A stretch of DNA of 5,926 bases, from the IMG/VR virus record IMGVR_UViG_2547132417_000011. One strand, given 5' to 3'. Position numbers and translations under genes: made by a program. Numbering within the stretch: position 1 is the first letter of the stretch; each line of letters opens with the position of its first letter. A model generated the notes under the pieces. The model was given only the letters and a program-made list of their open reading frames with translations, had not been told where the DNA came from and made no database searches. Below are positions 3,829-4,989 of this stretch, one piece after another. This stretch comes from a virus. Taxonomy: Duplodnaviria; Heunggongvirae; Uroviricota; Caudoviricetes.

Positions 3829-4989
3829 TTATTCAACCTCTTCTAAACTGCTCACTCTGGACCCTCGGCGGAAATTATCATCATTTTTAACATACTCGTA
3901 TGAATCCAGAATCAAACCAGATATGCGAAGTATATCTTCCGGATTAGTTATATGTATCCTTTTACCATCCGTATCAAGTCGAGCTCGTCTTATTTCATTC
4001 AACTGAACTTCACTAAGCGAAATAGGTAAAGTTATAAATGAAGATTTTTTATCATAAAATCTTAACAGCCATCTATTAGTTTTACCATTCAATAGTACAC
4101 CGAAATATGACTCAGTATCTTTATATTCTATATTATCTTCTGTTTGTATGATTTGTTTTACCCTTTCAAATAGCTCCAATTCTTTGGCTGTGGTTATTAT
4201 GTTGGGGTTTTCTTCATCAACAATGGCGTTATTAACTTGTGTATCCGTTGCATCATTTTCTTTAGTTTGCTCTACCGGTTGTGTAGATAGCCCGGAAACC
4301 ACCATTGCGCTAACAGCGCGCTCAACGGCCTGTTTAACTAATGGAGTCACGAACTCAAGAAATCTCTGATTAAGTTGCCTCTCAATATTTGAACGACTAG
4401 CAACATATCGAACAAACTCCAGATCAACTTCACGAAGACTAGAACTGATTGTTTTAGTAAATGAATTCAAATAAACACTTTCTTCAGCCAGTGTCCGTAA
4501 AGCCTCTGGTTTGAATTTATCATAACGAAAACGAAATAATTGTGTAATATCGGAGTGAGTTAGAGAATCCATTCTTAATTTTAAAAACGGCGTTGAATCC
4601 ATTATGTTTTTTTGTTTCAAATCCGTAAAAAAACGCCATTCAACACCATTTGTAATGGCTGATATAGTAACTTCCGGTGTTGAATTAAAATATCTTGATA
4701 GCTGTGGGCAGTGATTATCAATTTGTTCTGAAAACGATTTCGCCTCAATGAACATCACAGGAACATCATGACAAAATAAAGCGTAATCAACCCGTTCATT
4801 AGCCTTAACCCCGGGGAAGTCAGCACTATACTCAGCTTTGACTTTTCTTGGATCATACGGAGTAAAACCAAGAATATCTAGTAATGGCATAATGAGTGCT
4901 TGTTTTGTCGTTTCTTCAGTTGTACAAAACACCCCCATTTTTGCAACATGCTCTGTGTGTATTTTTAACTTATTTGCAAAATTTTCCAT
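3829..4989 (-). CDS. Moron-encoded protein with N-terminal type I restriction HsdR-N-like PD-(D/E)xK nuclease domain and uncharacterised C-terminal domain; candidate defence/exclusion nuclease
   Basis: Long ORF in an AT-rich segment. Two in-frame ATGs (5004 and 4989); GGAGGAG at 4996-5002 is 6 nt upstream of the ATG at 4989, so I call 4989 (386 aa); the longest ORF gives 391 aa. Residues 25-84 read ...EETTKQALIMPLLDILGF...GVKANERVDYALFCHDVPVMFIEAK, the pattern of HsdR N-terminal-like restriction endonuclease folds. D68 is at nt 4786-4788 and E82-A-K84 at 4738-4746. The C-terminal ~250 aa has no motif I can assign. Confidence 0.8.
   Translation of the reverse strand: MENFANKLKIHTEHVAKMGVFCTTEETTKQALIMPLLDILGFTPYDPRKVKAEYSADFPGVKANERVDYALFCHDVPVMFIEAKSFSEQIDNHCPQLSRYFNSTPEVTISAITNGVEWRFFTDLKQKNIMDSTPFLKLRMDSLTHSDITQLFRFRYDKFKPEALRTLAEESVYLNSFTKTISSSLREVDLEFVRYVASRSNIERQLNQRFLEFVTPLVKQAVERAVSAMVVSGLSTQPVEQTKENDATDTQVNNAIVDEENPNIITTAKELELFERVKQIIQTEDNIEYKDTESYFGVLLNGKTNRWLLRFYDKKSSFITLPISLSEVQLNEIRRARLDTDGKRIHITNPEDILRISGLILDSYEYVKNDDNFRRGSRVSSLEEVE

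Follow-up and report, generated by a model that had tools for sequence, protein, structure and literature searches.

The multi-part C-terminal extension of a prophage-borne HsdR_N-type nuclease

A nuclease gene in a replaceable cassette

The stretch of prophage DNA analyzed here, 5,926 nucleotides long and called the window below, carries on its minus strand an open reading frame (3829..5004, stop codon 3829-3831) that encodes 391 amino acids from its first ATG and 386 from a second ATG at 4989. This second codon (M6) is the start in RefSeq and in all homologues, and a Shine-Dalgarno motif can be read from the sequence 6 nt ahead of it (GGAGGAG, 4996..5002, minus strand); it is likely the true start of the gene. 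Residue numbers below count from the first ATG, while those of a first-pass annotation of the same DNA are lower by five because the homologues and RefSeq begin at the second. Positions 3829-4600, the part of the gene on which that annotation commented, hold the codons for residues 136-391.

The gene lies in a cargo cassette (3794..5138, minus strand) inserted between two baseplate genes. The GC content of the cassette is 0.33-0.39, compared with 0.44-0.54 in its flanks, and its place can be taken by something else: a prophage of E. coli W aligns to window positions 1801-3793 and 5139-5604 at 94-96%, and its slot contains a 179-aa hypothetical gene and a partial AntA/AntB gene. Many other strains likewise hold other cargo there. 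Directly upstream of the nuclease gene is a sigma-70-like promoter, TTGACA-18 nt-CAAAAT (5018..5047, minus strand), recognized by consensus match only; it is the best site in 3600-5300, with 10/12 positions matched, and 10 such sites were found versus 5.8 expected. One base past the stop codon there is an intrinsic-terminator hairpin (3800..3827, minus strand), CCCGC-GAAA-GCGGG followed by T6, with an RNA fold of -17.4 kcal/mol (z -5.85 versus shuffles). A simple terminator scan missed this hairpin, probably because A/T runs lengthen its stem. Among 5,426 complete genomes of E. coli only 33 carry a detectable relative, so that the gene must be regarded as accessory. With its own predicted signals, an atypical composition and a presence/absence polymorphism, the cassette has the appearance of a moron, or lysogenic-conversion gene.

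Is the reading frame itself genuine? A frameshift might have fused two unrelated genes, as the first-pass annotation had cautioned, or the frame might be a decaying pseudogene; one E. coli genome does carry a distant allele broken by an IS1 element, and no other support for an artefact was found. Against it, the order of nuclease domain, connector, linker and C-terminal domain (CTD) is constant, at 370-390 aa, in all of the 240 listed homologues, ranging from Enterobacterales to Clostridia and Methanococcus. The gene is present at 99.4-100% identity in 25 E. coli genomes, and the profile of PHROG 4225 ("endonuclease") covers the protein end to end, residues 6-375 matching profile positions 1-357 of 357 with an E of 9.8e-149. 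Given this recurrent layout of constant length and the end-to-end match, the frame is not a frameshift fusion, and an artefact of either kind is effectively refuted. The CTD by itself matches positions 260-357 of the same profile (E 6.9e-25). Two queries retrieved 1,354 and 2,660 homologues, and the same architecture occurs in more than 1,000 proteins of Enterobacterales, Clostridia, Methanococcus and many temperate phages; together with the PHROG 4225 match, these numbers put the C-terminal region far beyond chance.

Architecture of the protein

The N-terminal part (residues 1-165, 4510..5004, minus strand) is a nuclease domain of the HsdR_N-type PD-(D/E)xK kind and contains D73, E87 and K89. 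Residues 30-133 match HSDR_N (PF04313, E 5.6e-14) and HSDR_N_2 (PF13588, E 2.4e-9), and they are the only part of the protein assigned in scans of Pfam, NCBIfam and PADLOC, as an HsdR_N PD-(D/E)xK nuclease. When the N domain alone was compared with PDB sequences, there was no match. What, then, is the remainder? The first-pass annotation had described the C-terminal two-thirds as a single domain of ~250 aa with no motif assignable to a known family. The second half of this description holds, since residues 136-391 alone have no Pfam, NCBIfam or PADLOC match, and the first half has to be given up: the region consists of four pieces (136-165, 166-239, 240-268 and 269-375), of which the first, some 30 residues long, simply completes the nuclease fold (pLDDT about 90).

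The name given to the protein in RefSeq, "type I restriction endonuclease", deserves a comment at this point. An N-terminal HSDR_N-type PD-(D/E)xK domain is indeed common to this protein and Type I HsdR (EcoR124I HsdR, PDB 2w00; Vibrio HsdR fragment, 3h1t). However, HsdR has roughly 800-1,100 aa and the prophage protein 386; there is no Pfam match to an SF2 translocase (ResIII/DEAD plus Helicase_C) in its 391 aa; it scores 18.9 bits with the NCBIfam HsdR model, for which the cutoff is 729; and HsdM/HsdS genes are not adjacent, the gene being flanked by baseplate genes here and lacking such partners in the other contexts examined as well. The name reflects the shared nuclease domain only and is misleading.

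Behind the nuclease comes a conserved helical connector (residues 166-239, 4288..4509, minus strand), for which the AlphaFold model predicts long helices at low confidence (pLDDT 46-74). Within Enterobacterales the connector is 80.4% identical, which makes it as conserved as the nuclease domain. Among the best 150 CTD matches it is found only with the nuclease or in proteins that seem to be truncated at the N-terminus, and never in other architectures; it is a candidate dimerization or connector element. In the Type IIG/IIL enzymes BpuSI (3s1s) and DrdV (7lo5) a methyltransferase and a target-recognition domain come after the connector, whereas in the prophage nuclease, which has no methyltransferase, the connector is followed by the acidic tether and then by the small double-wing domain.

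The tether (residues 240-268, 4201..4287, minus strand) is disordered and acidic, with a pLDDT of 33-48, and the values stay below 50 across residues 237-258. It is also the most variable part of the protein in a 36-sequence alignment, where its column entropy reaches 2.6-3.1 bits compared with 0.4-1.9 elsewhere, yet all 36 homologues have it, at 26-38 residues and with a net charge of -2 to -10. Low pLDDT, the highest variability and a charge that is always acidic bear out the earlier view of this stretch as a linker between folded parts. The last folded piece is the CTD, a compact alpha/beta domain (residues 269-375, 3880..4200, minus strand; pLDDT 93), followed by a poorly conserved basic/acidic tail (residues 376-391, 3832..3879, minus strand; pLDDT 36-48) that clostridial homologues lack.

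Fold and partners of the C-terminal domain

The CTD has the topology alpha-beta4-alpha-beta-alpha and is "double-wing"-like, in agreement with the double-wing/CyaY-like alpha/beta fold of the YjbR/MmcQ (PF04237; PDB 2fki, 2a1v, 2kfp) and YdhG-like/DUF1801 (PF08818; PDB 9t2w) families. Judging from the predicted structure, the CTD shares the double-wing fold of YjbR, YdhG and the DNA-binding domain of T4 MotA. The identity to every structural neighbor is 10-14%; it is 12% for the top one, 9t2w, which is labeled a frataxin-like YdhG protein, and 12% again for the MotA C-terminal domain (PDB 5jlt, 6k4y). A Foldseek search of a viral structure library returned nothing for the CTD at an E of 0.001 or better and a MotA, weakly, at 0.06. 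Unlike the prophage nuclease, T4 MotA activates transcription and binds sigma through its N-terminal domain.

Sequence comparison does not follow the fold. None of 31 CTD sequences matched PF04237 or PF08818 in Pfam at E up to 10, and the Pfam scan gave no match to the frataxin profile either. An hhalign comparison of the CTD profile with E. coli YjbR gave a probability of 0.3%, a weak test in that the template was a single sequence. No solved structure was matched when the CTD profile was run against PDB sequences, the best hit being an antibody (E 1.3). Two Pfam families, DUF7683 (4/31 sequences) and SL4P (3/31), were considered for the CTD and rejected as scattered, inconsistent weak matches at E up to 10. 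The chemoreceptor helices that the full-length profile matched in PDB sequences (E 0.35) were set aside as spurious.

The CTD also differs from the YjbR and YdhG families, to which it has no detectable sequence or profile similarity, in its conserved motif (TTxxE ... YKDTxxYF ... WxxR ... SR[IV]Y) and in being net acidic. The first-pass annotation had allowed that the C-terminal region might turn out to be a well-known housekeeping or phage structural domain; this outcome is weakly approached by the resemblance in fold to 9t2w and is not reached at 12% identity and with no homology at the profile level. K295, D296, Y300, W312, R315 and D318 are invariant, and the conserved elements (the TTxxE helix cap, KDT-x-x-Y and W-x-x-R-x-x-D) could be purely structural. 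The mean charge is -2.2 and the pI mostly 5-6, values that are atypical for a DNA binder.

Some indication of what the CTD does may come from the company it keeps. A profile search found it in 673 representative proteins, and among the best 150 of these there are fusions to partners other than HsdR_N: DEDDh RNase_T exonucleases (3 proteins), a WYL domain in proteins too short to hold an N-terminal HTH as well (2 proteins) and a Haem_oxygenas_2 enzyme (2 proteins), besides one protein with a tandem CTD. The contigs that bear the WYL-CTD and haem-oxygenase-CTD proteins are just 1-3 kb long. Many of the short "CTD-only" matches are at least partly fragments from contig ends, P0242 for example beginning 34 nt from the end of its contig, and for this reason a stand-alone form of the CTD is not claimed, except for the complete 191-aa P0277. 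Two unrelated nuclease types and WYL as partners, together with the fold, speak for a targeting module that binds nucleic acid no less than for a sensor. The haem-oxygenase-like fusion has no obvious nucleic-acid logic and counts against a targeting role. The pace of evolution can be added to this picture: within Enterobacterales the identity is 61% for the CTD, 81% for the nuclease and 80% for the connector, so that the CTD changes at about double the rate of the other two, as expected for a specificity module.

Does the CTD read nucleic acid, or does it sense something else? As the first-pass annotation had proposed, it may be a sensor or regulator, perhaps together with the acidic tether; a phage protein or a small molecule would then relieve the auto-inhibition of a nuclease that is dangerous when free, in a mechanism of the abortive-infection type and not by targeting of DNA. 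The gene has no immunity partner, which implies that the nuclease must be restrained in the lysogen, and an always-acidic tether beside an acidic CTD could do this if the tether mimicked DNA and occupied the nuclease. The attachment of the CTD to effectors as different as a PD-(D/E)xK nuclease, an exonuclease of the DEDDh type and an enzyme resembling haem oxygenase is also what one would expect of a portable sensor or adaptor; WYL, to which the CTD is joined as well, is itself a ligand sensor; and the CTD does diverge faster than the effector. However, no ligand-binding motif or pocket was identified, and among the nearest solved folds those of known activity bind DNA (the MotA CTD) or iron (frataxin-like proteins), not phage proteins. 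In the AlphaFold model (pTM 0.50) the domains look independent, and there is no docked auto-inhibited arrangement. On balance a sensor is rather unlikely.

It is quite improbable, on the other hand, that the CTD neither targets nor senses and is instead a metal-binding module of the frataxin/YdhG kind, or simply a module for oligomerization or stability. Neither the 12% identity to 9t2w nor the missing DUF1801 and frataxin profile matches support it; most fusion partners act on nucleic acids, and a flexible tether of 30 residues suits a module that reaches and binds better than a structural one.

Genomic contexts and a proposed role

Elsewhere the gene is found in varied surroundings. In Rac-like prophages of Citrobacter it lies 21 nt behind a CI-like repressor gene, co-oriented with it and before kilR, ydaE and recET; we read this position as the sieB/rex slot. 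Lambda rexAB and the sieB genes of Rac and P22 are exclusion genes expressed in the lysogen from such a repressor-adjacent slot, and the nuclease gene shares their position and orientation. The likeness ends there: Rex and SieB, which are no nucleases, act in abortive infection as proteins of the membrane or ion-channel type, and the prophage protein is unrelated to them. The pattern of co-orientation with the repressor returns in Corynebacterium phage Juicebox, Enterococcus phage EG-TP1 and Klebsiella phage KpF5, and in Streptococcus phage IPP25 the order is repressor, hypothetical gene, nuclease gene, integrase. In a Porphyromonas phage the gene adjoins HicAB; in Clostridium it lies next to Schlafen-type helicases, MazG and nSTAND3; in Methanococcus it stands alone amid housekeeping genes. 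A DEDDh-CTD relative lies near DarT-Macro and a BglII-type endonuclease. Neither a methyltransferase nor a conserved partner gene is present in any of the roughly ten contexts compared.

These surroundings are compatible with a defence gene, as the first-pass annotation had supposed. Another possibility is that the nuclease serves the phage itself, in recombination, replication restart, degradation of host DNA or induction, with the CTD as an adaptor to DNA or to a partner protein. PHROG 4225 is filed as an endonuclease under "DNA, RNA and nucleotide metabolism", lambdoid prophages carry the gene in the early-left region upstream of recE/recT, and RecT-like and RecE-like genes are nearby in phage EG-TP1. 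However, in at least 5 unrelated phages the gene is directly behind the repressor, co-oriented with it and divergent from the lytic early genes; in the window it forms an autonomous cassette within a late baseplate operon, and related prophages lack it. Its accessory status in E. coli, and its presence outside prophages, among the housekeeping genes of Methanococcus and in a defence-type island of Clostridium, also argue against a function in the phage's own cycle, which is improbable.

If not the phage, what would the nuclease protect? Single-chain restriction enzymes that combine a reader with a nuclease exist among Type IV or modification-dependent systems (PvuRts1I/AbaSI, MspJI, Mrr) and in Type IIS FokI. 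McrB-N/McrC is counted among these reader-plus-nuclease enzymes (McrB-N: PMC3424535), and in a review of the PD-(D/E)xK superfamily HSDR_N shares a group with COG4748 and COG2810, to which the note "predicted Type IV" is attached (PMC3424549). Like these reader-plus-nuclease enzymes, the prophage protein joins a PD-(D/E)xK nuclease to a separate, small candidate recognition domain and has no cognate methyltransferase in the contexts examined; unlike the Type IV readers, the CTD does not appear to have an SRA, EVE/PUA or winged-helix fold or that of McrB-N itself. PADLOC-DB v2.0.0 contains no model matched by the full protein or by residues 136-391 at E up to 1. A search of the literature found no functional experiment on this nuclease family and one correlative mention, in which a phage-resistant Campylobacter strain has one such gene and a sensitive strain lacks it (PMC8713573).

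The explanation preferred here, with a probability of about 0.45, is that the gene encodes a single-chain cargo nuclease, expressed in the lysogen, which would protect it from phage or other foreign DNA and in which the CTD would be the target-recognition module. As self-contained cargo of the prophage, the gene would be expressed from the dormant element. The cutting would be done by the N-terminal HsdR_N-type PD-(D/E)xK domain through D73, E87 and K89, and helices 166-239 probably pair or connect subunits, because two active sites are required to cut both strands. Nucleic acid, or some mark that sets foreign DNA apart (a modified base or an unusual structure, for instance), would be bound by the CTD of roughly 105 residues, held by an acidic tether of 26-38 residues, and the tethered nuclease would in this way be brought to its substrate, by analogy with the Type IV and Type IIS enzymes. 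Since neither a methyltransferase nor an immunity gene lies alongside, the discrimination between self and non-self would have to reside in the protein itself.

A bolder version of this proposal is possible, if doubtful. The gene may represent an unrecognized single-gene anti-phage system, found in temperate phages of Proteobacteria, Firmicutes, Actinobacteria and Bacteroidetes, as part of their lysogeny modules, and in archaeal chromosomes too, and the CTD a new portable reader of foreign nucleic acid mounted on at least three effector types and recognizing, for example, a hypermodified base.

Even if the proposal is wrong, the multi-part C-terminal extension is genuine, its terminal domain has a known fold, and the product name is misleading. 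If it is right, a very widespread and mis-named family, which annotation today calls "type I restriction endonuclease" or, in Clostridium, even "DNA polymerase III subunit epsilon", would be a compact nuclease for defence with which prophages equip their hosts, and would add a candidate to the catalogues of defence systems. The CTD would then be a new portable recognition module that deserves a family model, with better annotation of thousands of prophage genes as a consequence, and the protein would offer a small reader-plus-cutter scaffold whose specificity is open to study by domain swaps.

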